Source of the DNA: a candidate division WWE3 bacterium
GTDB lineage: Bacteria > Patescibacteriota > WWE3 > UBA101185 > UBA10185
NCBI GenBank assembly: GCA_012798115.1
Contig: JAAZNV010000006.1
Location: 91,971-155,970 of the forward strand
Length of the DNA stretch: 64,000 nucleotides
Reading direction: 5' to 3'
Below, one piece after another: positions 14,035 through 63,198 of the stretch. Every line of letters begins with the position of its first letter. Position 1 is the stretch's first letter. Under the pieces are notes generated by a model. The model was not told the origin of the DNA, did not search any database, and saw nothing but the letters and a program-made list of their open reading frames with translations. A program made the position numbers and the translations under genes.

Positions 14035-14853
14035 ATGAGCATATTCAGATCCTTAGTATTGGGAGTAATACAAGGTTTTACAGAATTCCTGCCAATTTCA
14101 TCTTCAGCTCATTTGATTGTATTTAGATCATTGTCTGGCTGGGAAGAAATGCCTTTAGTTTTTGATACTACTCTTCATTTAGCTACTGCGTTATCTTTGA
14201 TTGTTTGCTTTTGGAACGATTTAAAGGTGATTACCTCATCTTTTTTCAAAGACGTTTTTTCTTCGCATAGTATTAAACTAAAAGAATACTCTTCTAACTC
14301 TCTTCTTGGGTTAAAAATTATTGTTGGGTCTATTCCTGTTGGTTTGGCTGGATTTTTCTTTGGAGATTTAATTGAAGCTAAGTATAGAAATCTTCTTCTT
14401 GTCTCCTTCTTCTTAATAACTGGAAGTATTTTAATGTATTTAGGGGAAAAGAAATTTGAGAAAAGACTTTTTATTAAAGATGATATTTCATTAAGGAAGA
14501 GTTTTGATGTTGGATTGTTTCAGGTTTTGTCTTTGTTTCCAGGAGTATCTAGATCTGGATCTACAATCTCAGGAGGTATGATTTTTGGGTTAAATAGGAA
14601 AGAAGCAACAAGATTTTCTTTTTTGCTTTCTATTCCTATTGTAGTCATAGCTGGAGTTTTTCAGTTGCTTCATTCTTATAGACTCTTATCTTTAATTAAT
14701 CCGTTGTGCTTATTAGTAGGTTTTGTATCCAGCTTTCTAGTTGGAATTTTGTGCATTAAGTTTTTGTTAAAGTTTGTACAAACAAATAATTTATATCCTT
14801 TTATTATTTATAGACTGATTCTAGCTGGAGTCATTTTACTAGTCTTAGTTTAA
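14035..14853 (+). CDS. uppP: undecaprenyl-diphosphate phosphatase
   Basis: BacA/UppP start MSIFRSLVLGVIQGFTEFLPISSSAHL; 8 TM. Confidence 0.85.
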   Translation: MSIFRSLVLGVIQGFTEFLPISSSAHLIVFRSLSGWEEMPLVFDTTLHLATALSLIVCFWNDLKVITSSFFKDVFSSHSIKLKEYSSNSLLGLKIIVGSIPVGLAGFFFGDLIEAKYRNLLLVSFFLITGSILMYLGEKKFEKRLFIKDDISLRKSFDVGLFQVLSLFPGVSRSGSTISGGMIFGLNRKEATRFSFLLSIPIVVIAGVFQLLHSYRLLSLINPLCLLVGFVSSFLVGILCIKFLLKFVQTNNLYPFIIYRLILAGVILLVLV

Positions 14854-47854: not shown

Positions 47855-49059
47855 AAATAGCTGTATTTATAAAATCAACAACATTTCATAAAGGGTATGG
47901 TGGCTTAGAAGTCCAAAACAAGACCATATGCGAAGAGTTGGTCAAAAGAGGGCATACAGTTATTGTTTTTTCTCCAAGAAAAGAATTGGAATGCTCTGAA
48001 AGAGAAGAAAATGGTGTTAAGTATATTTTTATTAATGCTAGCTATCGTGGGTATTTATTCTCGTCCTTAAAAGTAGACAGCTGGTACAAAAGGTCCTTAG
48101 AAGTTTTTACAGATTACCATAATAAAGAAAGTTTTGATTTAGTCTTAAGTCAAAGTTCTTCTGCAGAAAGCGTCATTGAAAACAAAAACTTTCTTGGTGT
48201 TAAGGTTGTTTCAATTTCTCATGGAACAGCAGCTTCTGAATATCTCACTTTTATTAAAAATATATCAAGATTAAAGGATATTTTGTGGTTGTTTAGGAAT
48301 ACTCAATATTTTCTTAGGCAATATTTTGGAAGACAAAGAAGGTTTATTAATCATTCAAATAGGATTATTGCTGTTTCTAATTATGTAAAGAAAGCTTTAG
48401 TGGAAGAAACGTTTGTGCCAGAAGACAAGATTAGTGTTATTCATAATGGTATAGACTCTGCTGATTATTCTAATGCTATGCTATTGAACCAAGGAACAAA
48501 GAATACATTAGGTGATGTTAAAAGCAAGGTTCAAATATATTTTCTAGGTAGGATAGAAAGATCCAAAGGTATATTTACTATTCTGGATATTGTTAAAGAT
48601 TTAGAATCAGGGTTCGTGTTGCATATTGTTGGTGATGGTCCTAATCTTGAGGAAGCTAGAGATAAAGCAAGGGTTTTAGGATTGTCTGATGATGTAATTT
48701 TTCATGGTAAATGCATTCATAAAGATTTTATTAAACTCTATAAACCTGATATTTTTGTTTTTCCAACAAAAAGAATAGAAGGATTTCCTATGGTTTTGGT
48801 TGAATCAATGTTTGCAGGTCTCCCTGTTGTTGCCTTTAATATGGGAGGGGTTTCTGATGCTGTTGAAGATGGAAAGACCGGTTATCTAGTAAAAGAAGGA
48901 GACACAAAGGAATTTAAAAAAAGACTAATTGAGTTAATGAGTGATCCTTCTTTAAGATTTATTCTTGGAAAGAATGCTAAAGAGAAGGCAGAAAATGAAT
49001 TTAGACTTGATAAAATGATAGATGCTTATGAAGGGCTTTTTAAGGAGACTTTAAAATGA
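47851..49059 (+). CDS. GT4 (GT-B) glycosyltransferase
   Basis: EGFPMVLVESMFAGLPVVAFNMGGVSDAVEDGKTGYLV. Confidence 0.75.
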   Translation: MKIAVFIKSTTFHKGYGGLEVQNKTICEELVKRGHTVIVFSPRKELECSEREENGVKYIFINASYRGYLFSSLKVDSWYKRSLEVFTDYHNKESFDLVLSQSSSAESVIENKNFLGVKVVSISHGTAASEYLTFIKNISRLKDILWLFRNTQYFLRQYFGRQRRFINHSNRIIAVSNYVKKALVEETFVPEDKISVIHNGIDSADYSNAMLLNQGTKNTLGDVKSKVQIYFLGRIERSKGIFTILDIVKDLESGFVLHIVGDGPNLEEARDKARVLGLSDDVIFHGKCIHKDFIKLYKPDIFVFPTKRIEGFPMVLVESMFAGLPVVAFNMGGVSDAVEDGKTGYLVKEGDTKEFKKRLIELMSDPSLRFILGKNAKEKAENEFRLDKMIDAYEGLFKETLK

Positions 49060-50252
49060 AAATACTAAGAATAGTTTATGATTGGCCACCACCATGGCAA
49101 GGTTTAGCACCTCATCCGTATGAATTAACCAGTGCTCAAACAAACATGAGTCATGAAGTGGAAGTGTTTTGTGGGAGATGGCCAAAAGCTGGAGAAATTG
49201 AGCAACCAAATGGTATAAAAGTTAATCCAATAATGAGAGAACCGCTTAGTGGCTCCATTTTTTTCACTAGCTCTGTTATTTTATTCTTCAAATATTTATC
49301 TTGGAGAAGAAAAAATAATCCAGATATTATTCATTCCCATGGACACTTTGGAGTTTGGATATACCTTTATAGGAAGTTGCTCCAAAAGTATTTCCCTTGG
49401 TCAAAAGAACTTAAGGTTCCGCTTGTTGTTCATTTTCATAACATAGCAAAGGATAGGTGGGATTCTATGAAGAAAGCTAAAAAAGAAATAAAGCCTATTT
49501 CGAGGTTCTTGGTTTGGCCATTGTCTGCTTTTTCAGATAAACAAGCAGTTAAGACTGCTTCTGCTTGCGTATTTGTTAGTGAAGATAATATGAAAAAAGC
49601 AATTGATCTTTATGGAGCTGATCCTAAAAGATGTTTTGTCGTGGAATCTGGTGTCAACCCAAGATTATTTAAACCAGTTAGTGTTGAAGAAAAAGAAAAG
49701 TCTAGAAAAGATATTGGTTTTGATATTGAGGACAAAGTTATTTTAAACCATGGTGTGATGTCAGAAAGAAAAAATGTTCATCTTCTTATAGAAGCTTTAA
49801 AATATCTTCCAAGGAATTACAAGCTTTTTCTAGTAGGTTCTGTGGATTCTGGATACACCTCAAAACTCAATACTTTAATTAAAGAAAATAACCTTATAGA
49901 TAGGGTAATGATGGCAGGATACACTCCTTATCCTTTAGCTCCAATTGCTTATCAAGTTTCAGATGTCTTTGTTCTTCCTTCTTCTTGGGAAGGGATGCCT
50001 AAAGTTGTTGTACAAGGATTAGCTTGTGGAATTCCTTGCCTTGTTTCAGGCTTTAAATTATCTGAAGAAATTAGAGGTTTATTCTACTTAGAAAGTTTAA
50101 ATCCTGAGCATATAGCTAGCTTTATTCTACAGATTGTAGAAAATCCAATGAGTGTAGATACTCAAAAAGTTGCCTTATATTACTCATGGGATTTTAGGGC
50201 TAAGGAAATAAATAATATTTATGAATTTGCCAAGAAGAATTATCTCATTTAA
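49056..50252 (+). CDS. GT4-like (GT-B) glycosyltransferase
   Basis: EGMPKVVVQGLACGIPCLVSGF; N-terminal half divergent. Confidence 0.6.
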   Translation: MKILRIVYDWPPPWQGLAPHPYELTSAQTNMSHEVEVFCGRWPKAGEIEQPNGIKVNPIMREPLSGSIFFTSSVILFFKYLSWRRKNNPDIIHSHGHFGVWIYLYRKLLQKYFPWSKELKVPLVVHFHNIAKDRWDSMKKAKKEIKPISRFLVWPLSAFSDKQAVKTASACVFVSEDNMKKAIDLYGADPKRCFVVESGVNPRLFKPVSVEEKEKSRKDIGFDIEDKVILNHGVMSERKNVHLLIEALKYLPRNYKLFLVGSVDSGYTSKLNTLIKENNLIDRVMMAGYTPYPLAPIAYQVSDVFVLPSSWEGMPKVVVQGLACGIPCLVSGFKLSEEIRGLFYLESLNPEHIASFILQIVENPMSVDTQKVALYYSWDFRAKEINNIYEFAKKNYLI

Positions 50253-51858
50253 ATATCCTTCCAAAATATCTTCTTTAAAGATTATTATTTTTCTTTTCTT
50301 TATCTTGTTACACTTGCTTTTGTTTAATGTTAACACTGCTGAGTGGGGTGATTCTTATAAAATACTTAGAGCATCAGAATTTATTAAAGAAGGAAGTTAC
50401 CCTGCTGATGAAAAAAGACCACCGGCTTTTTCCATGGTTCTAGCACTAAGACCTTTTCAAATGGACGCTATCTTGTGGGGTAGGGGAATTATGTTGATAT
50501 TTAGTATCTTGTCTTTTATTGTTTTTGATAAATTAATCTCCATTTTTATAAAAGAAAAAAAATATAAATTGATTTCTTTAATCATTTTTACCTTAAACCC
50601 TGTTTATTTATACTGGTCTTTAAGAATTATGGCGGATGTTCCATTTTCCTTTCTTGTTTTGTTATCTTCTTATCTTTTAACAAGGTGGAAAAATAGCTTA
50701 TCTATTTGGAAAAGCGTCTTAATTGGACTCATTTGTGGTTTAGCTATTTTAACTAGGTTTGAGGGTTATATTCTTTTGCTTTCTATGTTTGTTGGTATCT
50801 TGTTTGTAGATATACAAGGTCAACAGTTGCCATTTAAATTAAAAAATCTTCTAGGGTTGATGGCTAACAAACTGTCATATTTATTATCCTTAGGATTAAC
50901 GACCTTGGTTGTGATTTTGCCTTGGGTATTGTATCGTAATCCTTTTTCATCAAAATATTTCAATGAACCATCAGGAAGAACATATGATTTAAAAATGGTT
51001 TGGACTTACTTTTCTTCATTGTTTTACTTGTTTGGTTTTTCATCTGCGTTTTATTTCATTTTGAAATCATTTTTTAGTAACTTATGTGTTGCTAAATTTT
51101 TAAAAGAAAACATTGGCATAACTTTGTTTTTATCTCTTGAATTAATTCTCATCCTTTTATGGCCTGCAGCTATTCCAAGATTATTTGTTTCAGTAATTCC
51201 TTTCCTTATCATTTTATTTTCCTTGTCTTTTAAGGAATATGAAGAGAGCAATTTAAGCAATGCTAATAGGATTGATGTATGTTTCTTGGTTTTAATTTTA
51301 ATGTTTTATGTATTAAGTCAATTTATTCTCAAACTTCAATTTTTAATAGTTATAAGAGCTATCTTTGTAGTAATAATTTTGCTTCAAGCAGTTTCCATTT
51401 TATTTATTTACCTAAGGAAATTTAATCCAGCTTTGCTTGTATATGTTTTATCAGCCTTTATCTGGTCCTTGTCCACAGTTTATATCCATAAAGATATATA
51501 CACTGCAATAAAACAAGCCTCCTTGTATGCAGTTGATAACTTAGAAGGAAAGGTTGTTTATAATGATACAACTAGTGTTGCTCAATGGTATCTTAATTAC
51601 TTTAAACAAGGGAATTTCAAAGGTAGTACCTTGTATGGTGAATACTTAGATATGAGAAATTTAAATAATTTAAACTCAAATGTCTTATCTAGCTCCAAAG
51701 TTTCTTATGTTATTCTAACTAACGAAGACAGTATTAACTATGAGTCTGAGGTTGAAAAACTTAAATATCTAAATTTAATCAAAGATTTTAGGTATAATAT
51801 CGGAGATAAGCAGTTTTTTGCTAAAATATTTAAATTTAATGGAGGAACTTTTAAGTGA
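50221..51858 (+). CDS. ArnT/PMT-like GT-C membrane glycosyltransferase
   Basis: About 12 TM; first extracytoplasmic loop carries the acidic motif YPADEKRPPAF typical of GT39/GT83 enzymes. Confidence 0.65.
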   Translation: MNLPRRIISFKYPSKISSLKIIIFLFFILLHLLLFNVNTAEWGDSYKILRASEFIKEGSYPADEKRPPAFSMVLALRPFQMDAILWGRGIMLIFSILSFIVFDKLISIFIKEKKYKLISLIIFTLNPVYLYWSLRIMADVPFSFLVLLSSYLLTRWKNSLSIWKSVLIGLICGLAILTRFEGYILLLSMFVGILFVDIQGQQLPFKLKNLLGLMANKLSYLLSLGLTTLVVILPWVLYRNPFSSKYFNEPSGRTYDLKMVWTYFSSLFYLFGFSSAFYFILKSFFSNLCVAKFLKENIGITLFLSLELILILLWPAAIPRLFVSVIPFLIILFSLSFKEYEESNLSNANRIDVCFLVLILMFYVLSQFILKLQFLIVIRAIFVVIILLQAVSILFIYLRKFNPALLVYVLSAFIWSLSTVYIHKDIYTAIKQASLYAVDNLEGKVVYNDTTSVAQWYLNYFKQGNFKGSTLYGEYLDMRNLNNLNSNVLSSSKVSYVILTNEDSINYESEVEKLKYLNLIKDFRYNIGDKQFFAKIFKFNGGTFK

Positions 51859-52538
51859 AATTATCTGTTGTGATACCTTGCTATAACGAGAAGAATACTA
51901 TAGAAAAGATAGTAGATTTAGTTAAGGGTGTAGAAAGCATAGAAAAGGAAATAATTATAGTTGATGATGCCTCAAAGGATGGAACCGTAGATGTGCTAAA
52001 GAGCATCGAGAAGAAATATCCTGATATAAAAGTTATATATAAAGAAGTAAACAAAGGCAAAGGTGATACTTTAAAAGTAGGTTTTCAACATACAACTGGA
52101 GATTATGTAATTGTTCAAGATGCTGATCTTGAATACGACCCTCAAGACTACGTAAAGCTCTTAAAGGTTCTTGAAGAAGGAGTAGATGTGGTTTACGGGT
52201 CTAGGTTTTTAGGTAAATACGAAAAAATGACTACCCTTCACTACTTTGGAAATAAGTTTTTAACTTTAGTTACTAATCTTTTGTTTGGGGTAACACTTAC
52301 TGATATGGAAACTTGCTATAAATTAATGCCTGGGGATTTTGTAAGAAAACTTGATATTAAATCATCTAGATTTGAGTTTGAGCCGGAAATAACAGCTAAG
52401 ATACTTAAGTCTGGATTAAAAATAAAGGAAGTCCCCATTTCATATAAGGGAAGAAGTTTTAGTGAAGGAAAGAAGATGACGTGGAAAGATGGTTTTAATG
52501 CTATCTATTCCCTTGTTAAGTTTAAATTTTTTGATTGA
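51855..52538 (+). CDS. DPM1/ArnC-like GT2 polyprenyl-phosphate glycosyltransferase
   Basis: LSVVIPCYNEKNTI, IVDDASKDGT, QDADLEYDP. Confidence 0.8.
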   Translation: MKLSVVIPCYNEKNTIEKIVDLVKGVESIEKEIIIVDDASKDGTVDVLKSIEKKYPDIKVIYKEVNKGKGDTLKVGFQHTTGDYVIVQDADLEYDPQDYVKLLKVLEEGVDVVYGSRFLGKYEKMTTLHYFGNKFLTLVTNLLFGVTLTDMETCYKLMPGDFVRKLDIKSSRFEFEPEITAKILKSGLKIKEVPISYKGRSFSEGKKMTWKDGFNAIYSLVKFKFFD

Positions 52539-52564
52539 AGTTGGTTAAGTTTTGGAAATTAAAC

Positions 52565-54715
52565 ATGGTTAAAAAAATCGTTAAGCTTATTAAAGAAAAT
52601 ATCTTTCTTGTGATTGTTATTGGTTTTATGGCTGTGAACTTTTTTGTTGCTCTAAGGCTAAACGTTTTTAGGTACAATAATTTTGACTTTGGAAAATTTG
52701 ATCAAGGAAACATGACTCAGATGGTTTGGAACACATTAAGAGGAAGGGTTATGTACCTAACAGATTACTTTGGTTCTAATGTACCAAGATGGGCAATGAG
52801 TCATGTAGATCCAATTCTTTTATTGTTTGTGCCTGTTTTTGCAATTTTTCCACATCCCATGACACTGGCGTATGCTCAGCTTGTACTAGTGATTTTATCC
52901 GCACTTTTTATCTTTGAAATCACTAGGATGGAGCTTAAGTCCAAGTCAGCTGCTTGTTTCTTTAGTTTTGCTTATCTTTTATACCCATCTATGGGTTTCA
53001 TTAACGGAACAATGGGTTTTCATGGTGTGACTGCAGCAGTTCCATTTTTCTTAGCTGCCTTTTACTTGTTTGAAAAGATGTATAAGGAAGATAGCTTTTC
53101 TAAAAAGAAAGTTATTCTTTTCTGGATACTTTTAGTGATAACTATGTCTGGGAAGGAACAAATTCCTTTGTACATAATAATGTGGGGTTTGTTCATTCTT
53201 TTATTTAGAACAACTAAAGGTGAGGGGGCCACGTTAAAATTTAAGTTAAATAAAGACTGGTTGAAAAAGTTTTTTAATTTAAAACCCGCTAGACTTGGTT
53301 TAAGTATGATTATTTTTGGCTTACTGTGGTTTGTAATTGCATTTTTTGTAGTAATTCCAAAGTACGCACCACTTAGAACTGAAAGTTACAAAAAATTTGT
53401 AGAGTCTATAAACGTTTCGTTTGTTAGCAATAGTGATGTAACACTTCCTAATTACTTTTTAAGCAGGTATGGAGATTTTGGGTCTTCTTATAAAGAAGTG
53501 ATCATCAATATGCTTCTTAGCCCTAAAAAGGCTATTAAAGTCTTCTTAAGTGGGGATAGGCTTGATAGTTTAAACAGGACATTTGCTCCTGTTTCTTATC
53601 TTCCCTTAGCTAATCCATTTATGCTATTAATCTCAGCTCCAGATTTTGCTATCAACTATATGACCACATCAGAAGGTTTAGGAACTGAAGAAATTGAAAA
53701 TCATAGAATATCAATGATTATTCCTGTTCTTTTTATCTCTAGTATTTATGCAGTTTCTTTTCTTGCCAGCTTGTTTGAAGAATTACTTCCAAAATACAAG
53801 AATATAAAAACAGCACTTGTAGTAGTTATTTCTGGAGTTGTTTTGATTTCATGTGTTAAAACTTCATCTGATTACAATAACCCAATGTATTTGTGGTTTA
53901 ATCAAGCTATAAAAAAACGAGTATTTGCTAAATATGACCAAGAGTTGATTAAAGATTCTAATCTTCAAGTAGGTACTGTTGTTAGGCTTCCTGATTTGGA
54001 TGTCAAAGATTATGCGTGTGCTAAGGCTGTTGTAGAAATGATTCCAGATGGAGCTTCTGTTTCTGGGCCAGACAATTTGGGAACTCATTTGAGTATGAGA
54101 GAAACTTATGCAATATATCCTTCATTATGGAATTCAGCGGATTATGTTATTGTTAACGTTTTATCAAGAAAGTTGCTTGCAATTCTCCAATTGAACACAA
54201 ATATAGTTAGAGATGTGACTAAGAATGTGATTGCAAGTAAAGATTACAAACTCATTCTTGGTTGTGGGAATTTATTTTTATTTCAAAGAGGAGCTTCTCA
54301 AGACAAGCTTGAACCATACCCAATACAAGAAAGGTACGTGTATGACTATAAATATAATTTTGAGTTTACAGACACTTTAAAAGTAGTTGACTTTAAGCTT
54401 CCTGCAAGAGTTAAAAGAGGAATTCCTGATAAAAATACAATTGTATATCAACGATCTGGAGATGGAGCATTAGATGGTTTTGTTTTGTATATGACTTATG
54501 TGAATAAAGAAGATCAAAGTATTTATCAAGTAGCCAATCTTCCTTCATTTGCCATTAACAGACCATCTGATTGGACAAAAGAAAGGTATTACATAGAAAA
54601 TGTGGATGTAGCTCTTCCTTCTTATTTAAAGCCTGGAAATTATCAAGTATTTGTTAGTTTATCAAATAAAATAAAGTATAGAAGTTTGTACTTAGGTGAT
54701 TTAATTGTTGAGTAA
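52565..54715 (+). CDS. large polytopic membrane protein (DUF2079-like; candidate GT-C)
   Basis: About 12 TM N-terminal region with FDFGKFDQGNMTQMVWNTLRG, then a ~280 aa soluble C-terminal domain; an alternative TTG start at 52535 overlaps the GT2 stop. Confidence 0.55.
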   Translation: MVKKIVKLIKENIFLVIVIGFMAVNFFVALRLNVFRYNNFDFGKFDQGNMTQMVWNTLRGRVMYLTDYFGSNVPRWAMSHVDPILLLFVPVFAIFPHPMTLAYAQLVLVILSALFIFEITRMELKSKSAACFFSFAYLLYPSMGFINGTMGFHGVTAAVPFFLAAFYLFEKMYKEDSFSKKKVILFWILLVITMSGKEQIPLYIIMWGLFILLFRTTKGEGATLKFKLNKDWLKKFFNLKPARLGLSMIIFGLLWFVIAFFVVIPKYAPLRTESYKKFVESINVSFVSNSDVTLPNYFLSRYGDFGSSYKEVIINMLLSPKKAIKVFLSGDRLDSLNRTFAPVSYLPLANPFMLLISAPDFAINYMTTSEGLGTEEIENHRISMIIPVLFISSIYAVSFLASLFEELLPKYKNIKTALVVVISGVVLISCVKTSSDYNNPMYLWFNQAIKKRVFAKYDQELIKDSNLQVGTVVRLPDLDVKDYACAKAVVEMIPDGASVSGPDNLGTHLSMRETYAIYPSLWNSADYVIVNVLSRKLLAILQLNTNIVRDVTKNVIASKDYKLILGCGNLFLFQRGASQDKLEPYPIQERYVYDYKYNFEFTDTLKVVDFKLPARVKRGIPDKNTIVYQRSGDGALDGFVLYMTYVNKEDQSIYQVANLPSFAINRPSDWTKERYYIENVDVALPSYLKPGNYQVFVSLSNKIKYRSLYLGDLIVE

Positions 54716-54720
54716 AAACT

Positions 54721-56205
54721 ATGAAAGAATTAGGAAAATGGCAAATAGTTAGTATGATAGCTCAAGGTTTGGCCATGATTTCTGGAGCAGTTCAAACCTT
54801 CGTTATTATTAGGATTCTTAGTGTTGGAGAATGGGGTATTGTTCAACTGGCAACGTCTATTGGAGGAGCTTTAGGGATTTATCAGCACTTAGGGCTTGTG
54901 TCAGCAAGTACTAGAGAAATATCCTCTGCAGAGAAAAAGGAAGATATATTTAAGATTTTTATTACTTCCACTGCAGTTAGATATTGTGTGACATTGCCTC
55001 TTGCCATAGGTCTTTTCTTTTATTCAAAGTCTCTTGCAGTGAATATTTATCATAACGAAAGCTTGATTATTCCGTTAAAGATGTATGCTCTTTCTTTAGT
55101 TTTTCAAGGTGTCCAAGGAATACTAAACTCTGTGATTTCTGGAATGCAAAGGTTTAAGACATTGTTTGTATATCAAATTGTAATTTCTTATGTAAGTATT
55201 CTTTTGTACATTCCTCTTGTTCATTTCTTTAGAATCAATGGGTATTTTTATGCTTTCCTTTTGTTTAATATCATATCTTCTATTGTTTTGTCTGTTTTAG
55301 CCTTTAAGCCGTTAAAAGGAAAGCTGATTTTACCATCAAAGAAAGATTTTATGAGATTATTTAAGGAAATATTTTCAATTAGTATTGCTATTTATGTAGT
55401 TAAAATTTTATATACAAATTGGGAAAAGCTTGGAAGTAATGCTTTAGGGTTGTTCAATTCACCAGAAGTTGTGGCTATATATGCTTTTGCAATGCTTTAT
55501 GCAAAAAAGATAATGAGTATTTCAGATTCTGTTACTACAGTTAACATTCCTGTGTTTTCAGAAAGATATGCTAAAAACTTCAATGAGTTTAAAGAAACTT
55601 TTGTTAAAAACTTTAATAAATTATTTTCTTTGATAGTCTTTATCGGATCTTTTGCTTCTTACTTTGCTCCAGATGTAATTAGACTACTTGTTGGCGGAAA
55701 TAAGTATAATGAATCTTTTTCTCTCATTGCTCCTATGGTTTTTGCCTTCATAATATATTCTTTTGTAAACATAATAAGTTCCAGTGTTTTAATACCAGCC
55801 AAGATGGCAAAAAGCATGGTAGGAAGTTATGTATTTTTGATAGTAGGATCTGTTTTAAGTTTCTTTGGACTTTATAAGTTTATAGATCTTCTTTCTGCTG
55901 TTTCATGGGCAATGACTTTTGGAAGCATAATATGTCTTGGATTTATGCTCTACTGGATTAAAAAGAAAATGAATTTTAGTTTCTTTAATATTGATCATGT
56001 GGTTATTCTCTTACAAGGGTTTTTTATTGCATGGCTTTGTAAGGTTGATGTTTTTTGGTTTAAAATTGCTGCCTTTGTTCCTTTTGCATCTCTTCTTTTG
56101 TGGTCTTTGTTTGTGTCAAAATTTTTTACGAAAGAAGATGTAATGTCCATGTTTAGAAAGTTTAAAGGGCTAGTTCCTAAAAAATTAACCTCAAGGGCAG
56201 AATAA
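54721..56205 (+). CDS. Wzx-like MOP-superfamily oligosaccharide flippase
   Basis: About 14 TM polysaccharide-biosynthesis-protein architecture. Confidence 0.6.
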   Translation: MKELGKWQIVSMIAQGLAMISGAVQTFVIIRILSVGEWGIVQLATSIGGALGIYQHLGLVSASTREISSAEKKEDIFKIFITSTAVRYCVTLPLAIGLFFYSKSLAVNIYHNESLIIPLKMYALSLVFQGVQGILNSVISGMQRFKTLFVYQIVISYVSILLYIPLVHFFRINGYFYAFLLFNIISSIVLSVLAFKPLKGKLILPSKKDFMRLFKEIFSISIAIYVVKILYTNWEKLGSNALGLFNSPEVVAIYAFAMLYAKKIMSISDSVTTVNIPVFSERYAKNFNEFKETFVKNFNKLFSLIVFIGSFASYFAPDVIRLLVGGNKYNESFSLIAPMVFAFIIYSFVNIISSSVLIPAKMAKSMVGSYVFLIVGSVLSFFGLYKFIDLLSAVSWAMTFGSIICLGFMLYWIKKKMNFSFFNIDHVVILLQGFFIAWLCKVDVFWFKIAAFVPFASLLLWSLFVSKFFTKEDVMSMFRKFKGLVPKKLTSRAE

Positions 56206-56207
56206 AA

Positions 56208-57107
56208 ATGAAAAAGATAAAAGAAAAACTTAAAACATTATTTAAGATTACAGTTAGTATAGTTTTGATTGTTTATCTTGTTTTAAATAAAGTAGATAAA
56301 AATGAACTAATAAGAAATTTTAAACTCTTAGATTGGAGGTTTATTCCTTTAATTTTTATCCTTATTGTTTCTCATTATATTGTTAGCTCCTTTAGGTGGA
56401 AATCTCTTCTTGTTCATGATAAGGCAAAGAATGTTTCTCCTCTTTATTTGTTTAACCTTTACTTTATAGGAGCGTTCTTTAATAACTTTATGCCTACAAG
56501 TGTTGGGGGAGATGTCTATAAAGCATATATGCTGTCAAAGAAAATTGATGATTCTGCAATTGGACTTTCATCTGTGTTTACAGAAAGATTTACAGGGATA
56601 ATAATGCTTGCCTTGATTGCATTGCTGAGTTTATCTAAAAGTTTAGGTTTTAAGGTTTTAATTCTTATTATTTGGCTTGTTATGGGAATTTATCTTGGTC
56701 TTTATGCCTTAAAGTTATTAAGTAAAACTAAATTTAAGTTCTTTAAGAAAGTTTATGATGCTCTAATGATATATAGGAATTATCCTAAGGTACTTCTTTT
56801 TGCTATGCTTTCTTCCATTATTGTTCAAGTTCTTTCTATTCTCACTCAATACTTTACATTTATGGCAATAGGAGTTAGGCTTCCAATATTTTATTCGTTT
56901 TTAGCATTTCCTGTAATAACACTAGCTGGTTTCTTTATTCCTTCTCTTAATGGTTATGGGGTTCAAGATGCTTTATATATGAGCATGTTTTCTCTTGTGG
57001 GTGTTCCTGCAGAAACTGCTGTTTCTGCTTCCATTATTTATCACCTGTTAAGACTAGGTGTGAGTTTAATTGGAGGGGTTTTGTATGCTCTTGGAAAAGA
57101 TTCGTAA
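56208..57107 (+). CDS. UPF0104 / lysylphosphatidylglycerol-synthase-TM-like flippase-domain membrane protein
   Basis: 8 TM; N-terminal LVLNKVDKNELIRNFKLLDWRFIPL and a FNNFMPTSVGGDVYKAYML segment typical of this family. Confidence 0.55.
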   Translation: MKKIKEKLKTLFKITVSIVLIVYLVLNKVDKNELIRNFKLLDWRFIPLIFILIVSHYIVSSFRWKSLLVHDKAKNVSPLYLFNLYFIGAFFNNFMPTSVGGDVYKAYMLSKKIDDSAIGLSSVFTERFTGIIMLALIALLSLSKSLGFKVLILIIWLVMGIYLGLYALKLLSKTKFKFFKKVYDALMIYRNYPKVLLFAMLSSIIVQVLSILTQYFTFMAIGVRLPIFYSFLAFPVITLAGFFIPSLNGYGVQDALYMSMFSLVGVPAETAVSASIIYHLLRLGVSLIGGVLYALGKDS

Positions 57108-58734
57108 AGCCTTTTCCTTTTTAAGTCAAGCTGAAAAGAATAAATTATCCAGGTGTGCACTTTTATTGATCTTTGTATTCTTATTCTTTGCAACAAGGAT
57201 TCCTTATTTATCTAAGGATACAATAAATCCAGATGGAGTAAATTGGCATTATAGGTCTCAGCAATTTGTTGTTGGTTTGAAGTTTCTCCAATTTGAAAAA
57301 ACATATCAGCATTATCACCCTGGTGTGACCTTAATGTGGGTTACAGGAATTCCAATAGAAATATTTAAGCAAGTAACTAATATTAAAGATTATAACTTGT
57401 ATAACTTCCAAGCCTTTGATTTTATTGCTAAGTTTTCATTAGTTATTGTTCAGCTTGTCTTATCTTTACTGGTTATTTATGCTCTTTCTAAGATAGTAGG
57501 CTTTAATAAGTCTTTTCTAACAGTTGTCTTTTTTTCTTTTGAACCCTTTTTTGTAGGTAATTCTCGCTTGTATCACATGGATACTCTTCTTTCTATTCTT
57601 TTGTTCTTAGCAATAATTTTTTCCTTTCTTAATCTTAAAAACCCTTCATTTGGAATGTCTTTACTTTCTGGATTATTTCTTGCTTTATCTTTTTTAACTA
57701 AAAGTGTTTCAATAGGAGCCGTTCTTTTTGTTGTTTTATATGCTTTGGCTTACTTTGTTTATTCAAAACAATATAAAAGCATTCTTCCTTATGTTGCTTA
57801 CACCTTGTTTTTCTTTGTGTTATTCACATTCTTACTTTTTCCGGCTCTTTGGGAAAACCCCATATATTATCTTTCTTTGATATTTAAGGAAGCTGCTAGG
57901 GTAGGTATAAGGAAAGGGCATGGACAAGTAGTATTTGGGGAATATACAAGAGATCCTGGGTTTTGGTTTTATCCCTTGGTTTTACTCGTTAAAACAAGTC
58001 CATTTACAATTATTGGTTGCATACTCTTTGTAGTGTCATCTATCAAGAGTTTAGTTATTGATGTAAAGGAAAACATTAAGAATGAGATTAAAATGTTTAA
58101 AGACACTAAGAAGAAGTTCTTAAATTTTGGTTTTTACATTGCTGTTTTTTATCTTGGATATGTGTTTAGCATGTCCTTTCCGACAAAGAAGATAGATAGA
58201 TATATGTTGGTTGTTTATCCGTTTATGGCTTATTTAGCTGTTGTTGGATACGGGAAAGTATTTTTATTCTTAAAAAGTAAGGTAAAAAAGCTTATGTTTT
58301 GGTCTACAATATCTTTATTGTGTTTAGTTTTTTGGGTTATGCCTTTTGTTAGAGTTTATCCTTACTATTTTACTTACACTAGTCCTTTATTTATTAACTC
58401 GCAAACTGCAAATAAAATAGTTGCTCAAAAGCCTTTTGGAATTGGAATGTATGATTTAAAGGAACTTATTGTTAAAAGATATGGGAGTTCAAAAAATCTT
58501 ATGACTCCAAAATTAGCATTTGTAGACACTAAGCCGATGAAATCTATTTATCCCAACTCAAAAGTATTTGATGTTAGAGTATCAGGACCAGGGCAGTATG
58601 ACCTTTTGGTATTAGGTGTCAATGAAGATATACCTGAGAATATAGAAAACAGTAAATATACATTTGAAAAAGATGCTTCTATGTGGATTAATGGTCTTGA
58701 GTACTGGAGGATTTATGTCAAAAAAGAAAAGTAA
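57085..58734 (+). CDS. ArnT/PMT-like GT-C membrane glycosyltransferase (paralog 1 of 3 in tandem)
   Basis: Polytopic; HYHPGVTLMWVTGIPIE shared with paralog 3; GGAGGGG RBS before ATG 57085. Confidence 0.65.
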   Translation: MLLEKIRKAFSFLSQAEKNKLSRCALLLIFVFLFFATRIPYLSKDTINPDGVNWHYRSQQFVVGLKFLQFEKTYQHYHPGVTLMWVTGIPIEIFKQVTNIKDYNLYNFQAFDFIAKFSLVIVQLVLSLLVIYALSKIVGFNKSFLTVVFFSFEPFFVGNSRLYHMDTLLSILLFLAIIFSFLNLKNPSFGMSLLSGLFLALSFLTKSVSIGAVLFVVLYALAYFVYSKQYKSILPYVAYTLFFFVLFTFLLFPALWENPIYYLSLIFKEAARVGIRKGHGQVVFGEYTRDPGFWFYPLVLLVKTSPFTIIGCILFVVSSIKSLVIDVKENIKNEIKMFKDTKKKFLNFGFYIAVFYLGYVFSMSFPTKKIDRYMLVVYPFMAYLAVVGYGKVFLFLKSKVKKLMFWSTISLLCLVFWVMPFVRVYPYYFTYTSPLFINSQTANKIVAQKPFGIGMYDLKELIVKRYGSSKNLMTPKLAFVDTKPMKSIYPNSKVFDVRVSGPGQYDLLVLGVNEDIPENIENSKYTFEKDASMWINGLEYWRIYVKKEK

Positions 58735-60259
58735 GACAATACTTTTGATAGTTTTACTTTGTGCACTAGTTTTAAGGCTTGCTGGGATAACCCATGGCTT
58801 CCCCTTTATATTTCATCCAGATGAACCAACTATTGTTAGATCTGCATTAGGAATTAGATTTAATTTAAATCCTAAGCACTTTGACTGGTCTCATTTATAT
58901 ATGTATCTTAATTACTTCTTATATATGATGTTTTCTAGGTGTAGAAATATGTTGGGAATTCTAGGGATAAGAAATGCTATCTCAACATTGTTTCCTTTAG
59001 TATGGAATGATGATTTAGTCTTCTACTTTTTAACAAGGTGTTTTTCAGCAATACTTGGAGCCTTAACAGTAATTCCAGTTTATTTATCCGCAAGAAAATT
59101 ATTTAATGAAAAAGCTGCTTTGTTCTCTGCCTTTTGTATGGCCTTTCTTCCTTATCATGTTTGGCACTCTCATTACTCTTTAGGAGATGTTCCAATGGTT
59201 TTTTTCCTTTCTTGGGGCCTTTATTTCTCCTGTTTGATATTAAATGACTCTAAGATAAAAAATTATGTACTTTCGGGGCTTTTTATTGGTCTATCAGCGT
59301 CTACTAAGTACAACGGTGGTTTATCAGCTTTAATGGTTCCTACAGCTCATTTTTTAAGGGTGTTGGGTACAGTTAAGATGAGTGGAAAAAAGGTTAAAAT
59401 ACTGGATTTTAAGGGCATTTTAGCCTTAATTTTATCTGGGTTTAGTGCTCTTGTAGGGTTTTTAATAGGCACTCCTTATGCTCTTTTAGACTTTAAGACT
59501 TTTTCAAGAACAGATAGTCCTAAAGGAGCTTTTTGGCAGTTTACAAATGTTGGATCCATTGGTTTTACAAAGCACTTTACTCAGTTTTTCAATGAGCTTT
59601 TTGTAAGTGTATCAAGCAACATGGGATGGGTAACAATACTTGCTTATGTTCTTACGTTTTTTTATTTAATGTTTACAGTGTTAAAAAAGAAAAACAATGA
59701 AGTTATACATAAACTAATGTTTTTGTATATAAACTCTTTATTTCTTTTTTGGTATATTTCTGGATTTAAAAATACCAGAGCACATTATTACTTTGTTTTT
59801 TATCCGTTTGCTGCAGTGATATTTGGATTTTTTGTGTCAAAGGTTAATGATTGGCTTCTTGCTAAGAAAAAACTTTATTCTTCCTTGTTTATACTTTTAA
59901 TGTGCCTTCCTTTAGTAATTTTCTCAATTAAGAACTCATACTCTTTTTATAAAGGAGATACTAGGAATGATTTGTATGATTGGCTTGTTTTAAATCTTAA
60001 GGTAGGAGAAAATATATTTTATAACGATATAAAAGCATCTGATGTATTTGATAAGCTACAAGTCAACGCAAAAAAAGGTTTTGATAATTTGACAACTACA
60101 AATAGTGCCTTAGTGATTGTTCTTGATCCTGAGAATTCTACAGATTTTCTTGCTAAGAATTCTTCTTACTTAACTAAAGAAAAATCTTTTAGTAATAATT
60201 TAAGGTTAGGCCCAAACATTGAGATCTATAGGTATCAAAATGAAAAATTTACTAAGTAA
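58715..60259 (+). CDS. ArnT/PMT-like GT-C membrane glycosyltransferase (paralog 2)
   Basis: Loop-1 HPDEP acidic motif, PYHVWHSHYSLGDVP; GGAGGA RBS before ATG 58715. Confidence 0.65.
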   Translation: MSKKKSKTILLIVLLCALVLRLAGITHGFPFIFHPDEPTIVRSALGIRFNLNPKHFDWSHLYMYLNYFLYMMFSRCRNMLGILGIRNAISTLFPLVWNDDLVFYFLTRCFSAILGALTVIPVYLSARKLFNEKAALFSAFCMAFLPYHVWHSHYSLGDVPMVFFLSWGLYFSCLILNDSKIKNYVLSGLFIGLSASTKYNGGLSALMVPTAHFLRVLGTVKMSGKKVKILDFKGILALILSGFSALVGFLIGTPYALLDFKTFSRTDSPKGAFWQFTNVGSIGFTKHFTQFFNELFVSVSSNMGWVTILAYVLTFFYLMFTVLKKKNNEVIHKLMFLYINSLFLFWYISGFKNTRAHYYFVFYPFAAVIFGFFVSKVNDWLLAKKKLYSSLFILLMCLPLVIFSIKNSYSFYKGDTRNDLYDWLVLNLKVGENIFYNDIKASDVFDKLQVNAKKGFDNLTTTNSALVIVLDPENSTDFLAKNSSYLTKEKSFSNNLRLGPNIEIYRYQNEKFTK

Positions 60260-61922
60260 AATAAAAGCCTTTTTTTCAAAATTTAAATACGAGCTTGTTG
60301 TTTTTCTTGTTTTTGTCTTGGTAAGACTCCCAAGTTTAGGTCATGATAATTTTAATACTGATGTATGGAGGTGGAAAGCAAGATCATATGATTTTGGAAA
60401 TGGTGTCTTTTTAAGGCAGTTTGCAAACACTCTTCAGAAATATCATCCTGGCGTAACTTTAATGTGGGTGTCTGGTATTGGAGCAAAGATAAATAATGCG
60501 TACAGTGTAGCAAGAGGAATTTCCTTATCTGCTGATAACAATATAAATATAATATTTCAATTGGATTTCATTCAAAAGTTTCTAATTGTATGTACCATTG
60601 GTATTGCCTTGTCTTTCATATTTTATGTTTTAAGAAATGTTTTTGGTCTAAAGTATGCTATTGTTTCAATATTTCTCTTATCATTTGAACCATTTTATCT
60701 TGCTTTAACTAGGGTGATTCATCTTGAGGGGTTGGTTTCTACGTTTATGTTAGCTAGTGTAGTTTGGCTTTACTATTATTTTCTTAATGATAGAAACTAC
60801 AAAAGATTAATTATTTCTGGGTTATTTGCTGGATTTTCTGTTCTTACTAAGACTTCTGCTATCTTTTTAATTCCTTTTTGTGGTTTATCTACTGCTCTTT
60901 TCTTCTTAAAGGGGAAACAAGATGAAAGAGTAAATAATGAGAAAAAGATAAAGAATGTACTTGTATCTATTTTTAGGGTATTTTTCATTTGGTTTGGGGT
61001 TTTACTAGTTACTTTCTTTGTTTTTTGGCCTGCTATGTGGGTAGAACCATTAAAAGTATTCCAAACCTTATATGAAGGTATAGCTTCTGTTGGGGTGGAA
61101 GGAGATCATATTCAGTATTACTTTGGAAGGTTAGTGGAAGATCCAGGCCCTAGTTTTTATTTTGTAGTTTTAGGTTTTAGGTCGTCGATTTACCTTCTTG
61201 TAGGCTTTGTTGGCTCTTTAATTATAAGAAAAAAATTACCTGTTAACTTAAGGAGGTTTATGGATTATCTTCTTATTTTTGTTTTCTTTTACTTTATTCA
61301 ATTAACTCTTCCATCAAAAAAGTTGGATAGGTACATACTTCCTGAACTTGTAGTTATGTCTCTTATTTCTTCTATGTTTTTTGTTTGGTTGTTTGAAAAA
61401 CTAAACTTTAAGAAAGTTATGGTAATGGTATTTATGATGCCTGCTATTTTAACTGCTTTGTACCTTCATCCTGAGTATATGTCTTATTACAACCCAATGT
61501 TTGGTGGAATAAAAATTGGGGTTAAGACTTTAGAGCCTAAATGGTTAATAGGCACAAGTAATATTATTAGGTACTTTAAAGGTTTATCTGAAAGAGATAA
61601 TTTACAATCTTCTTTTAATACTTCATTTGAAGAATTAGTTTACGTTCATCATGGAAGAGATCTTGAACCATTATTAACTGTTGCTTTTAGGGAAAAGTAT
61701 TATACCCAAATATGGCCATTTTTTAGAGAATTTGGAGCATGGCCTGTCATTGAATCTTTAACCCCATTTGCAGAAAGAACAAAATATTTTGTTTACCCTG
61801 TATGGGATGATACTGCATCTACAGAAAATAGATTTACTCTTAGATATGTTGACACCATCAAGTTAAGAGGAGCCCCTCTTTATAACGTCTACTTTAATGA
61901 AACTTTGGTAAATGAAAGATAA
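60240..61922 (+). CDS. ArnT/PMT-like GT-C membrane glycosyltransferase (paralog 3)
   Basis: KYHPGVTLMWVSGIGAKI nearly identical to the corresponding block of paralog 1; polytopic. Confidence 0.65.
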   Translation: MKNLLSKIKAFFSKFKYELVVFLVFVLVRLPSLGHDNFNTDVWRWKARSYDFGNGVFLRQFANTLQKYHPGVTLMWVSGIGAKINNAYSVARGISLSADNNINIIFQLDFIQKFLIVCTIGIALSFIFYVLRNVFGLKYAIVSIFLLSFEPFYLALTRVIHLEGLVSTFMLASVVWLYYYFLNDRNYKRLIISGLFAGFSVLTKTSAIFLIPFCGLSTALFFLKGKQDERVNNEKKIKNVLVSIFRVFFIWFGVLLVTFFVFWPAMWVEPLKVFQTLYEGIASVGVEGDHIQYYFGRLVEDPGPSFYFVVLGFRSSIYLLVGFVGSLIIRKKLPVNLRRFMDYLLIFVFFYFIQLTLPSKKLDRYILPELVVMSLISSMFFVWLFEKLNFKKVMVMVFMMPAILTALYLHPEYMSYYNPMFGGIKIGVKTLEPKWLIGTSNIIRYFKGLSERDNLQSSFNTSFEELVYVHHGRDLEPLLTVAFREKYYTQIWPFFREFGAWPVIESLTPFAERTKYFVYPVWDDTASTENRFTLRYVDTIKLRGAPLYNVYFNETLVNER

Positions 61923-63198
61923 GTTAAATAATATAAAAGGGAATAAAGATCTATATGAAACTGTTCTTGTGGGTACTGGCACCATTGTTGGCTCTTTTTT
62001 TAGTTATCTATTGCAGTTTATCTTAGGGAGGAAATTGTCAGTTGAAGATTACGGGTCTTTTAACACTCTTCTTTCTGTTTCTAGTTTAGTAGGTGTTTTG
62101 TCCACGGTTTTAGGAGTGTCTTTAGTAAAGGTATCTTCAGATCTTTATGTTAATGAGGAGAAAGAAAAGCTTAAACTTTTATTTGTTAACATATCTAAAC
62201 TTTCATTACTTACAGGAGCATTTTTGTTTTTAGTAGTGTTTTCTTCTAGGTATGCTATTTCTAATTTGTTTAGGATAAGTAATGTTGTTGTTATTTCCTA
62301 TTTTGCAGCAAATGTTGGTTTATCAATTTTAAATGGTGTTCCTCCTAGTTTTATAAGAGGCTTGCAAAGATTCAGAAGATTTTCTTTATATCAAGTTTTA
62401 TCTTGTTTAAATAGGTTTTTATTTCCTACAATACTTGTTTTTATGGGATTTGGGTTGACTGGCGTATTCAAAGGGTTAACAATTTCTTCAATTTTAACCA
62501 TTGTTTTAGGGTTTGTTCTTTTAGGATTGAACTTAAGAACATTCAAGGACTTAAATTTAACCAAGGAGTATAAAAAGATATTATCTTTTAGCCTCCCTGT
62601 AATATTTACTCATCTTTTTACCACTTCTTTAACAAATACTGATTTAATTTTAGTTAAAAAATACTTTTCACCATTAGAGGCAGGCTATTATGCAGGCGCT
62701 GTAACTTTGGGAAAGATTCTTTTGTTTGGAGCTGGTGCTGTAACTATTGTTATGTTTCCAAAGATATCTGCTTTGTATGCTAAAAAAGAAGATTTTTATC
62801 CAAGATTTAAAAACTTGTCAATGATTCTCTTAGGTGTTCTTTTAGTGGGAATTCTTAGCTACTCAATATTCCCGGCATTGCTTACAAAGATATTTTTTGG
62901 AATAAGCTTTGAAAACTCTGTTAAATACCTTCCTATGTTTTCTATTGGTGTTTCTTTGTTTGTTCTTGTTAATTTTTTTACTACATTCTTCCTTGCTGTT
63001 GAAAAAACAAACGTGTCTTTTTTGCTTCTTCCTGGTGTAGTCTTGCAATATTTGCTTATAACAACTCATCATTCTTCCTTATATGAAGTTATAGAAGCTA
63101 ATATTTTTGCATGTATAATAACGTTAGTTTTGCTAGTATTTTACTTTTATGCCCAAAGATCTAAATGGTTAAAAACATCGTTAAAACTAAAAAGTTAG
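61912..63198 (+). CDS. Wzx-like MOP-superfamily flippase (second copy)
   Basis: About 12-14 TM; polysaccharide-biosynthesis-protein-like. Confidence 0.55.
   Translation: MKDKLNNIKGNKDLYETVLVGTGTIVGSFFSYLLQFILGRKLSVEDYGSFNTLLSVSSLVGVLSTVLGVSLVKVSSDLYVNEEKEKLKLLFVNISKLSLLTGAFLFLVVFSSRYAISNLFRISNVVVISYFAANVGLSILNGVPPSFIRGLQRFRRFSLYQVLSCLNRFLFPTILVFMGFGLTGVFKGLTISSILTIVLGFVLLGLNLRTFKDLNLTKEYKKILSFSLPVIFTHLFTTSLTNTDLILVKKYFSPLEAGYYAGAVTLGKILLFGAGAVTIVMFPKISALYAKKEDFYPRFKNLSMILLGVLLVGILSYSIFPALLTKIFFGISFENSVKYLPMFSIGVSLFVLVNFFTTFFLAVEKTNVSFLLLPGVVLQYLLITTHHSSLYEVIEANIFACIITLVLLVFYFYAQRSKWLKTSLKLKS

Follow-up and report, generated by a model that had tools for sequence, protein, structure and literature searches.

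A conserved trio of predicted GT-C glycosyltransferases encoded in a large surface-sugar operon of WWE3 bacteria

The closest described systems are the GT39/83-like bacterial GT-C glycosyltransferases of the PMT_2 type (PF13231), which comprise ArnT, RgtA-D and bacterial Pmt. The Rhizobium Rgt system combines several PMT_2 paralogs with a GT2 enzyme that makes a polyprenyl-phosphate-linked uronic acid donor. The mycobacterial embC-embA-embB genes form a set of three adjacent GT-C genes in one operon and serve an extracytoplasmic cell-envelope glycan; the Emb proteins use polyprenyl-phosphate sugar donors, are close paralogs of one family (GT53), about 1,100 aa long, and carry large C-terminal carbohydrate-binding domains. 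Protein O-mannosyltransferases (PMTs) have a D-E pair in loop 1. In the three-component GtrA/GtrB/GT-C systems (O-antigen, LTA/WTA glycosylation), a cytoplasmic GT2 enzyme loads polyprenyl phosphate with a sugar, a small flippase or GtrA-like domain brings the product outward, and a GT-C enzyme transfers the sugar outside.

Three adjacent ORFs, P1, P2 and P3, are located on the plus strand of a 64,000-nt stretch of a genome of candidate division WWE3 (Patescibacteria; GCA_012798115.1, contig JAAZNV010000006.1, positions 91,971-155,970; hereafter the window), and their genes are annotated in the NCBI database record as "glycosyltransferase family 39". An earlier note on this DNA had located them correctly (Table 1) and had read them as a local triplication of ArnT/PMT-like GT-C genes. 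Comparison with related loci and families, at the level of sequence, revealed two characteristic features of the trio: (i) P1-P2-P3 is an old trio inside a large surface-sugar operon of nearly all WWE3 species, and (ii) P1 and P3 are old paralogs, P2 comes from a PMT/ArnT-like lineage of its own, and the trio is not a set of redundant copies. The biology of the trio is ordinary, its architecture neatly conserved.

Table 1. Trio genes, start sites, signature blocks and operon neighbors; positions refer to the window
Feature	Position	Strand	Description
Candidate donor-making polyprenyl-phosphate mannose synthase homolog	43357-44484	+	Pfam GT2 + GtrA_DPMS_TM
UDP-glucose 6-dehydrogenase	45286-46656	+	three UDPG_MGDP_dh domains
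Three consecutive GT4 cytoplasmic glycosyltransferases	46646-50252	+	Pfam
Membrane protein, possible fourth GT-C	50221-51858	+	545 aa; PMT_2 16.7 bits vs cutoff 26.1
Second DPMS/ArnC-like GT2	51855-52538	+	catalytic domain only; Pfam GT2 123 bits
DUF2079 membrane protein	52535-54715	+	726 aa; PF09852 115 bits; syntenic with trio
Wzx-like flippase (Polysacc_synt, MOP family)	54721-56205	+	Pfam; upstream of trio; syntenic
LPG_synthase_TM (MprF-type) flippase-like membrane protein	56208-57107	+	PF03706 158 bits; TIGR00374 87.6 bits; directly upstream of P1
GGAGG + P1 ATG	57072-57087	+	GGAGG at 57072-57076; within 3' end of upstream flippase-like gene (23-nt overlap)
P1	57085-58734	+	549 aa; GT-C glycosyltransferase, PMT_2 type, QxYHPGVTLMW subfamily
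P1 signature-block DNA (QFEKTYQHYHPGVTLMWVTG...)	57289-57368	+	direct repeat D1; pairs with 60417-60496 of P3
Shine-Dalgarno-like GGAGG + P2 ATG	58706-58717	+	GGAGG at 58706-58710
P2	58715-60259	+	514 aa; GT-C glycosyltransferase, other subfamily, PMT/ArnT-like
P3	60240-61922	+	560 aa; GT-C glycosyltransferase, ancient P1 paralog, QxYHPGVTLMW subfamily
P3 signature-block DNA (QFANTLQKYHPGVTLMWVSG...)	60417-60496	+	direct repeat D1 partner
Second Wzx-like flippase	61912-63198	+	Pfam; 11-nt overlap with P3 end; syntenic

All three proteins exceed the curated gathering cutoff of the PMT_2 model (26.1 bits), scoring 35.7 (P1), 55.8 (P2) and 35.5 bits (P3), and the domain was matched at E<=1e-3 by 41 of the 41 P2 orthologs and by 28 of the 31 members of the P1 and P3 families. 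Structure comparison identified the GT-C_A multi-pass membrane fold with its conserved N-terminal module (for P3, via hhalign to P1); the fold matches include Pmt1-Pmt2 (PDB 6p2r) and EmbA-EmbB (7bvf), and a sequence search of P1 and P3 against solved structures gave no detectable match. The PMT domain PF02366 (cutoff 22.7 bits) was found in P2 at 46.9 bits, covering profile positions 80-229 only, and below the cutoff in P3 (21.5 bits), with no match in P1; the NCBIfam ArnT model matched no protein of the trio. The ArnT/PMT-like GT-C identity proposed for all three is thus supported by the PMT_2 domain, the fold and the conserved motifs.

Paralogy of the three proteins, as claimed before, holds for P1 and P3, the most similar pair as had been expected (29% identity over 438 aa, E=5e-45 by BLASTP; E=7.6e-67 over 490 columns by profile-profile alignment with hhalign), but P2 aligned by BLASTP with P1 over 56 aa only (E=0.011) and with P3 over 117 aa only (E=3e-6). 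On these alignments, P2 is a member of a separate GT-C subfamily and not an equivalent paralog of the other two. The block shared by P1 and P3, which had been noticed in the letters alone, is real: 12 of its 17 residues are identical, including the 10 consecutive residues YHPGVTLMWV, and both ortholog families conserve it more strongly than any other motif; it is not a chance match of low complexity. At the DNA level the corresponding 80-nt direct repeat is only 70% identical, with synonymous differences inside the identical peptide. The extended pattern, QxYHPGVTLMW, is the signature of a broad uncharacterized PMT_2 subfamily that reaches Chloroflexota and has 1,649 representatives at E<=1e-30; the shared motif is not evidence of recent duplication.

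Conserved acidic residues, which the earlier note had suggested looking for, were found in the first outward loop of each protein. P1, P2 and P3 each start with a basic (K/R-rich), presumably cytoplasmic N-terminus and TM1, followed by a loop of 70-75 aa, with secondary structure as part of the evidence. D50 is invariant in the loop of about 70 aa of P1, and D41 of P3, which aligns with it, is likewise invariant; across both families this Asp is unchanged, as are about 35 further positions. P2 carries the HPDEP motif in its loop, with H34, D36 and E37 invariant in 41 orthologs. The loops gave no sequence match in the PDB; by position only, D50, D36-E37 and D41 would be the counterparts of the catalytic Asp in ArnT, PMT or OST, and we infer an outward orientation of the active site in the three proteins.

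In 56 of 58 species-level loci of WWE3/Patescibacteria the order P1-P2-P3 is kept, the surrounding operon being syntenic over more than 20 kb, and this argues for an inherited lineage-wide module and not for a local event; the "WWE3-wide" breadth rests partly on record titles, since many public locus labels are generic ("Patescibacteria", "Saccharibacteria"). Orthologs are 45-81% identical, compared with 23-29% for the paralogs, and thus the split of P1 and P3 is older than the WWE3 radiation; by the same comparison, the copies lack the closer mutual similarity expected of a recent tandem paralog array. Distinct specificities of P1, P2 and P3, another suggestion of the earlier note, are plausible in view of the deep and separate ortholog families to which the three genes belong.

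The overlapping starts and the GGAGG motifs before the first two of them were confirmed: the ATG codons of P1, P2 and P3 overlap the upstream genes by 23, 20 and 20 nt, respectively, and P3 is preceded by a weak AGG only. The GGAGG and ATG of P2 sit inside the codons for the conserved C-terminus of P1 (E-Y-W-R-I-Y-V-K), and the arrangement TGGAGR-AT-N-TATG recurs at this junction in most of about 60 related loci, with an overlap that is usually 17-20 nt (range about 8-35). Between P2 and P3 the junction is not constant: some loci have a 4-nt overlap there, others a gap. The embedded start suggests that P1 and P2 are translationally coupled, and no excess of terminator-like sites was observed within the operon.

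The neighboring genes encode candidate enzymes for both donor and acceptor synthesis. The mannose synthase homolog aligns full-length (residues 1-371) with the Pyrococcus furiosus Dol-P-Man synthase (5mlz; E=4.9e-40), including the GT2 catalytic and GtrA-like TM parts, and the second GT2 matches both 5mlz (E=3.9e-21) and ArnC (E of about 3e-15). The dehydrogenase, which scores 551.7 bits with the TuaD model (cutoff 700) and 478 bits as an NDP-sugar dehydrogenase, would supply UDP-glucuronate. A BacA/UppP undecaprenyl-diphosphatase is encoded at 14035-14853 of the window. The earlier count of five GT-C-like enzymes in the window stands for the trio and is weak for the other two, both below the PMT_2 threshold: the possible fourth GT-C, whose ortholog in locus L002 has a weak PMT_2 match, aligned with the P2 family over 91 columns (hhalign E=4.9e-4, probability 32%), and the N-terminal part of the 17476-19092 product scored about 17 bits. 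The large DUF2079 protein was missing from that list. The LPG_synthase_TM gene is present in L001 and missing from the RAAC2-type loci L002 and L003.

The reading that we prefer, with a probability of roughly 0.75, is that P1, P2 and P3 are three distinct WWE3 GT-C enzymes, probably all active, that use polyprenyl-phosphate sugar donors in coupled steps to build a surface glycan; most likely, they would catalyze separate extracytoplasmic transfers onto a putative surface glycan or glycoprotein acceptor. The likely donors, polyprenyl-monophosphate sugars, would be made on the cytoplasmic face by the two Dol-P-Man-synthase/ArnC-like GT2 enzymes and then flipped outward, and one donor sugar may be a uronic acid formed via UDP-glucose dehydrogenase. 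By analogy with all characterized GT-C enzymes, the acidic residue of loop 1 (P1 D50, P2 D36-E37, P3 D41) would serve to activate the acceptor on the outer side of the membrane. A glycan, possibly lipid-, wall- or protein-linked, is the probable acceptor; the GT4 and GT2 enzymes would assemble it, and the two Wzx-like flippases would export it. P1 and P3 would descend from the ancient duplication described above, and the fixed gene order together with the embedded P2 start suggests that three successive steps are co-expressed in a coupled manner. The fold, the family, the conservation, the synteny and the donor-synthase homologs are what the analysis shows, whereas we infer the donor type, the stepwise action and the acceptor.

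A tentative alternative, compatible with the preferred reading and different from it in the acceptor only, is protein glycosylation, in which at least one enzyme of the trio, above all P2, would modify proteins that are secreted or lie at the surface, for instance S-layer proteins or pilins, like PMT or the archaeal Agl system (AglJ/AglD Dol-P-sugar synthases, AglM dehydrogenase, AglR flippase, and the GT-C enzymes AglS and AglB). The P2 family profile matches yeast Pmt1 in the TM3-TM6 region (E=1e-11), and 24 of 41 P2 orthologs match the Pfam STT3 model, all below its threshold (P2 itself 21.6 bits, cutoff 24.5; no match for P1 or P3). AglJ is the best NCBIfam match of the operon GT2 enzymes and AglM scores 377 bits with the dehydrogenase, but none of these scores comes near its equivalog cutoff, and the archaeo_STT3 model gave 31.6 bits against a cutoff of 450. 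A glycosylated S-layer has been suggested for WWE3 (Kantor et al. 2013, PMC3812714), which would fit such a role, but no candidate target protein was found. Moreover, a WWDYG-type motif (W[WYF][DE][YFWH]G or WWD) occurs in none of the 125 family members checked (42+41+42), the C-terminal domains of the trio are only about 100-140 aa long (that of P1 is alpha/beta), and Pfam detected neither MIR nor any extra domain in P1, P2 or P3.

We consider it unlikely that the trio is an obligate hetero-oligomeric transferase like Pmt1-Pmt2 or EmbA-EmbB, with gene order and overlaps serving stoichiometric assembly and not three independent steps. The fixed order, the conserved embedded start of P2 and the presence of these known GT-C heterodimers among the fold matches agree with it; however, one locus (L034) has P1 and P3 without P2, two others (L063 and L070) have solo P1-like copies, and the P2-P3 junction is variable. 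Less probable still is a version in which the trio would be one translationally coupled hetero-oligomeric extracytoplasmic polymerase/ligase and the WWE3-wide operon would make a cell-wall polymer that is specific to the lineage, contains uronic acid and in part replaces the structural role of peptidoglycan. The parts named in it are the trio, the two further GT-C-like proteins, DUF2079, the two Wzx flippases and the two polyprenyl-phosphate-sugar synthases; its background is the peptidoglycan pathway, reported to be incomplete in WWE3.

It is very improbable that the trio modifies lipid A or some other membrane lipid in the manner of ArnT to give resistance to cationic antimicrobials: some orthologs are named "ArnT family glycosyltransferase" by NCBI and the MprF-type gene directly precedes P1, but lipid A/LPS biosynthesis genes are missing from WWE3 and related candidate phyla (PMC3812714), no Ara4N pathway genes beyond the generic ArnC-like GT2 were seen in the operon, and the operon consists mostly of polysaccharide-type GT4, GT2 and Wzx genes. 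We give almost no credence to the triplication read by the earlier note, taken here as a recent event in this lineage in which one GT-C gene was triplicated and its copies then diversified, because the tandem arrangement, the similar lengths, the common PMT_2 domain and the striking motif of P1 and P3 are outweighed by the divergence of the proteins, their separate ortholog families in a fixed order, the synonymous changes in the motif DNA and the size of the family that the motif typifies.

Compared with the described systems, the trio resembles the PMT_2 bacterial GT-C enzymes in its above-threshold PF13231 domain, its GT-C fold, its long first outward loop with conserved acidic residues and its nearby DPMS/ArnC-like synthases, and the UDP-glucose dehydrogenase adds a likeness to Rhizobium Rgt; it differs in the LPS-lacking lineage, in the P1/P3 signature of its own and in that neither subfamily has a characterized member. 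The trio shares with Emb the three adjacent GT-C genes in one operon, and would likewise serve an extracytoplasmic envelope glycan with polyprenyl-phosphate sugar donors, whereas its proteins are only 514-560 aa long and P2 falls outside the subfamily of the other two. P2 has the loop-1 D-E pair of PMTs such as yeast Pmt1-Pmt2 (6p25/6p2r), but is shorter (514 versus more than 700 aa), lacks MIR, and has a loop 1 not alignable by sequence. The neighboring genes resemble parts of the Agl pathway, and the trio differs from AglB/STT3 in the motif and in the much smaller C-terminal domain. The operon follows the same logic as the GtrA/GtrB/GT-C systems, the GT2 at 43357 carrying a GtrA_DPMS_TM domain; in contrast to those systems, it combines several GT-C and several GT2 enzymes with Wzx flippases in one conserved operon, which suggests that an entire polymer is assembled and not that a single sugar is added as decoration.

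The three genes for GT-C membrane glycosyltransferases P1, P2 and P3 (together, the trio) form an ancient, lineage-wide and already-annotated module, in which two old paralogs, P1 and P3, are combined with an enzyme of another GT-C subfamily, P2, in a conserved surface-glycan operon. The earlier note described them as a local triplication of ArnT/PMT-like GT-C paralogs. The observation itself is real and well described, and the family assignment is correct: all three proteins exceed the gathering threshold of Pfam PMT_2, and P2, over profile positions 80-229, that of PMT too. The evolutionary reading, however, is wrong. As had been expected, identity is highest between P1 and P3 (29% over 438 residues, E=5e-45 in BLASTP), whereas P2 matches only the central PMT_2 core of P1 (56 aa, E=0.011) and of P3 (117 aa, E=3e-6). 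The alignment of the P1 and P3 ortholog-family profiles spans 490 columns and takes in the C-terminal domain (E=7.6e-67); the profile-profile comparison for P2 gave 93.6% probability over 240 columns. P2 is a lineage distinct from P1/P3.

The near-identical block noticed in P1 and P3 does exist (12 of 17 residues identical, ten of them consecutive), and its invariance in both families and presence in distant representatives rule out a chance or low-complexity match. The 80 nt of DNA that encode this motif share only 70% identity, with synonymous differences within the identical peptide, which rules out recent duplication or gene conversion. Paralogs are 23-27% identical versus 45-80% for orthologs; therefore, the P1/P3 duplication is older than the WWE3 radiation. 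A recent triplication is thus excluded by the identities, the separate ortholog families, the synteny and the divergence of the motif DNA.

Each of the three proteins belongs to its own deep ortholog family in WWE3/Patescibacteria assemblies, with 45-81% identity to the window protein. A species-level scan (one genome per species) yielded 75 loci, almost all from WWE3/Patescibacteria and including one from Chloroflexota, and their six-frame ORFs were scored with HMMs built from the P1, P2 and P3 families. Of the 58 loci that extend at least 3.3 kb downstream, 56 have the order P1-P2-P3; one species (locus L034) has P1-P3 without P2. Extra solo P1-like copies away from the trio were observed in two genomes (L063, 4463-5995; L070, 10001-11536; 36-39% identity); the L063 genome carries this divergent second copy as well as the trio. 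The wider syntenic order, conserved at about 50% protein identity, comprises UDP-glucose dehydrogenase, three GT4s, the ortholog of 50221-51858, a small GT2, DUF2079, Wzx, P1-P2-P3, Wzx, two GT2s and a radical SAM gene. In relatives, the operon runs on beyond the position of the window 3' end: two further GT2 genes and the gene of a B12-binding radical SAM enzyme follow (L001, 18022-19587; L002, 18103-19716), in L002 together with a small ferredoxin; this content hints at an unusual sugar modification. WWE3 genomes are smaller than 1 Mb (878 kb for the complete RAAC2 genome), and nearly every species nevertheless retains this surface-glycan operon, which exceeds 20 kb and contains the 4.8-kb trio; thus, the glycan is probably central to the envelope or the host-attached lifestyle of the uncultured WWE3 bacteria.

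Features of the trio, its operon and other genes of interest in the window
Feature	Position	Strand	Details
P1	57085-58734	+	549 aa; start overlaps preceding stop codon by 23 nt
P2	58715-60259	+	start overlap 20 nt
P3	60240-61922	+	560 aa; start overlap 20 nt
GGAGG before P1	57072-57076
GGAGG before P2	58706-58710
BacA/UppP undecaprenyl-diphosphate phosphatase	14035-14853	+	254.6 bits
Membrane protein with C-terminal repeats	17476-19092	-	538 aa; multi-pass N-terminal part, strong C-terminal TPR repeats; PMT_2 17.2 bits (sub-threshold, profile positions 13-156 of 160)
CAP/SCP-domain (cysteine-rich secretory protein family) protein	42108-43097	+	between ribosomal-protein block and glycan operon
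Full-length Pyrococcus Dol-P-Man synthase homolog	43357-44484		GT2 domain and GtrA-like TM domain; E=4.9e-40
UDP-glucose 6-dehydrogenase	45286-46656
Membrane protein syntenic in WWE3	50221-51858	+	545 aa; no above-threshold Pfam match; PMT_2 16.7 bits
Dol-P-Man synthase/ArnC-like catalytic domain	51855-52538
DUF2079 membrane protein	52535-54715	+	726 aa; adjoins trio in all loci inspected
MprF-type LPG_synthase_TM (flippase-like) gene	56208-57107	+	overlaps P1 start by 23 nt

The three co-directional ORFs were confirmed at the place reported, with best-supported ATG starts. P1 is 100% identical over its full length to an NCBI protein, annotated there as "glycosyltransferase family 39", and a protein identical to P3 is present in the database. 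The P2 start lies within the conserved C-terminal motif of P1; most related loci have an in-frame ATG there, whereas conservation is lacking for another possible ATG, located 24 nt farther upstream. Start overlaps of about 20 nt and GGAGG before the first two starts, both pointed out previously, were recovered in the window sequence; P3 is preceded by a weak AGG only, and the following gene overlaps P3 by 11 nt. At the P1-P2 junction (gag tac TGG AGg att tAT Gtc), the Shine-Dalgarno-like GGAG and the ATG of P2 are embedded in the codons of the P1 C-terminal peptide E-Y-W-R-I-Y-V-K. Most related loci show the same arrangement, their overlap usually measuring 17-20 nt (range about 8-35). Translational coupling would fit this pattern. 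The P2-P3 junction is variable, a 4-nt ATGA overlap being the commonest form and the 20-nt overlap being confined to the window and its closest relative. Terminator-like and promoter-like sites are not in excess within 42-62 kb, which fits one long operon.

The AlphaFold2 models built from ortholog alignments were confident for both P1 (pLDDT 89.7, pTM 0.91) and P2 (pLDDT 90.4, pTM 0.91). Their fold scores, given for P2 and P1, respectively, against AglB (27.5, 23.6), ALG12 (27.0, 25.8), Pmt4 (26.3, 23.3), ArnT (24.2, 23.2) and AftA (18.5, 19.8) do not distinguish GT-C enzymes that act on proteins from those that act on lipids or glycans. In searches of PDB sequences, the P2 family profile matches yeast Pmt1 (E=1e-11), and the P1 and P3 profiles have no meaningful match to a solved structure. 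All three proteins start with a basic N-terminus, TM1 and a loop of 70-75 residues. In P1/P3, the loop contains D-x-x-N-x-D, with D50 of P1 and D41 of P3 invariant, and is closed directly before TM2 by the signature Q-x-Y-H-P-G-V-T-L-M-W. The P2 loop is nearly invariant (GFPFIFHPDEPTIVRSALGIRF...HFDWPHLY), with H34, D36 and E37 fixed. Compared by sequence with solved chains, the N-terminal loop of P2 had no match and that of P1 only spurious ones to LRR sequences; judged by position, D50, D41 and D36-E37 would be the counterparts of the catalytic Asp of ArnT, PMT or OST. Some 35 positions keep the same residue throughout both the P1 and the P3 family, so both paralogs look active.

In a search of 1.84 billion cluster representatives, the combined P1 and P3 family profile matched 10,445 proteins at E<=1e-3; the number falls to 3,974 at E<=1e-10 and to 1,649 at E<=1e-30. 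Since QxYHPGVTLMW is retained in many distant representatives, some of them 865-aa Caldilineaceae (Chloroflexota) proteins named "glycosyltransferase family 39", it is a signature that marks a large uncharacterised branch of PMT_2. Distant homologs of P1/P3 type outside Patescibacteria (L078, 9824-13057, from a Chloroflexota MAG, and P0502/P0524 from Caldilineaceae) are much longer, at 865-1,090 aa, and have large extra C-terminal regions. The branch is entirely uncharacterised, and a single biochemical characterisation would provide annotation for thousands of proteins.

Besides the synthase-like genes in the table, the trio is surrounded by three GT4 and further GT2 enzymes, two Wzx-like flippases and an MprF-type flippase-like protein. 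The gene for the latter is present in the window and in the related locus L001, and absent from the RAAC2-type loci L002 and L003, where Wzx directly precedes P1. The BacA/UppP gene fits an undecaprenyl-phosphate carrier-lipid cycle in the organism. Farther upstream, gene orientation switches from - to + at about 11854-12048, at the minimum of cumulative GC skew; no origin of replication is evident there, the flanking + gene encoding seryl-tRNA synthetase and not DnaA.

The GT-C enzymes that have been characterised take their sugars from polyprenyl-phosphate-linked donors on the outer face of the membrane. In the most economical model, GT2 synthases would load sugars onto polyprenyl phosphate, the donors would be flipped outward, and P1, P2 and P3 would each transfer one sugar to an acceptor on the outside, either a glycan or a glycoprotein. 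An oligosaccharyltransferase role for P2, raised by its AglB/STT3 signals, is unlikely because the STT3 scores are sub-threshold and none of the 125 members of the P1, P2 and P3 families checked has a WWDYG-type motif. Lipid A genes are reported to be missing from WWE3 (PMC3812714), which makes it unlikely as well that any of the trio modifies lipid A in the manner of ArnT. According to PMC3812714, the genome of WWE3 is also particularly rich in glycosyltransferases and has no complete identifiable peptidoglycan pathway, which leaves room for the speculative reading that the operon builds a structural wall polymer. The literature on the trio or on GT-C enzymes in Patescibacteria/WWE3 yielded only a general remark on abundant glycosyltransferases.

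The proposed total of five GT-C-like enzymes in the window holds for the trio; for the other two candidates, 50221-51858 and 17476-19092, the PMT_2 matches stay below threshold (about 17 bits). The former, whose RAAC2-type ortholog also matches PMT_2 weakly, could represent a fourth, divergent GT-C in the operon. Neither the DUF2079 protein nor 17476-19092 significantly matches the P2 family profile. The trio reveals no new kind of system; what is mildly notable is limited to the conservation of gene order, the start codon embedded in P1 and how large the uncharacterised P1/P3 subfamily is. The gene at 17476-19092, flanked by secA on one side and a signal peptidase gene on the other, combines a weak PMT_2 match with TPR repeats in a layout that recalls the TMTC-type GT-C O-mannosyltransferases.
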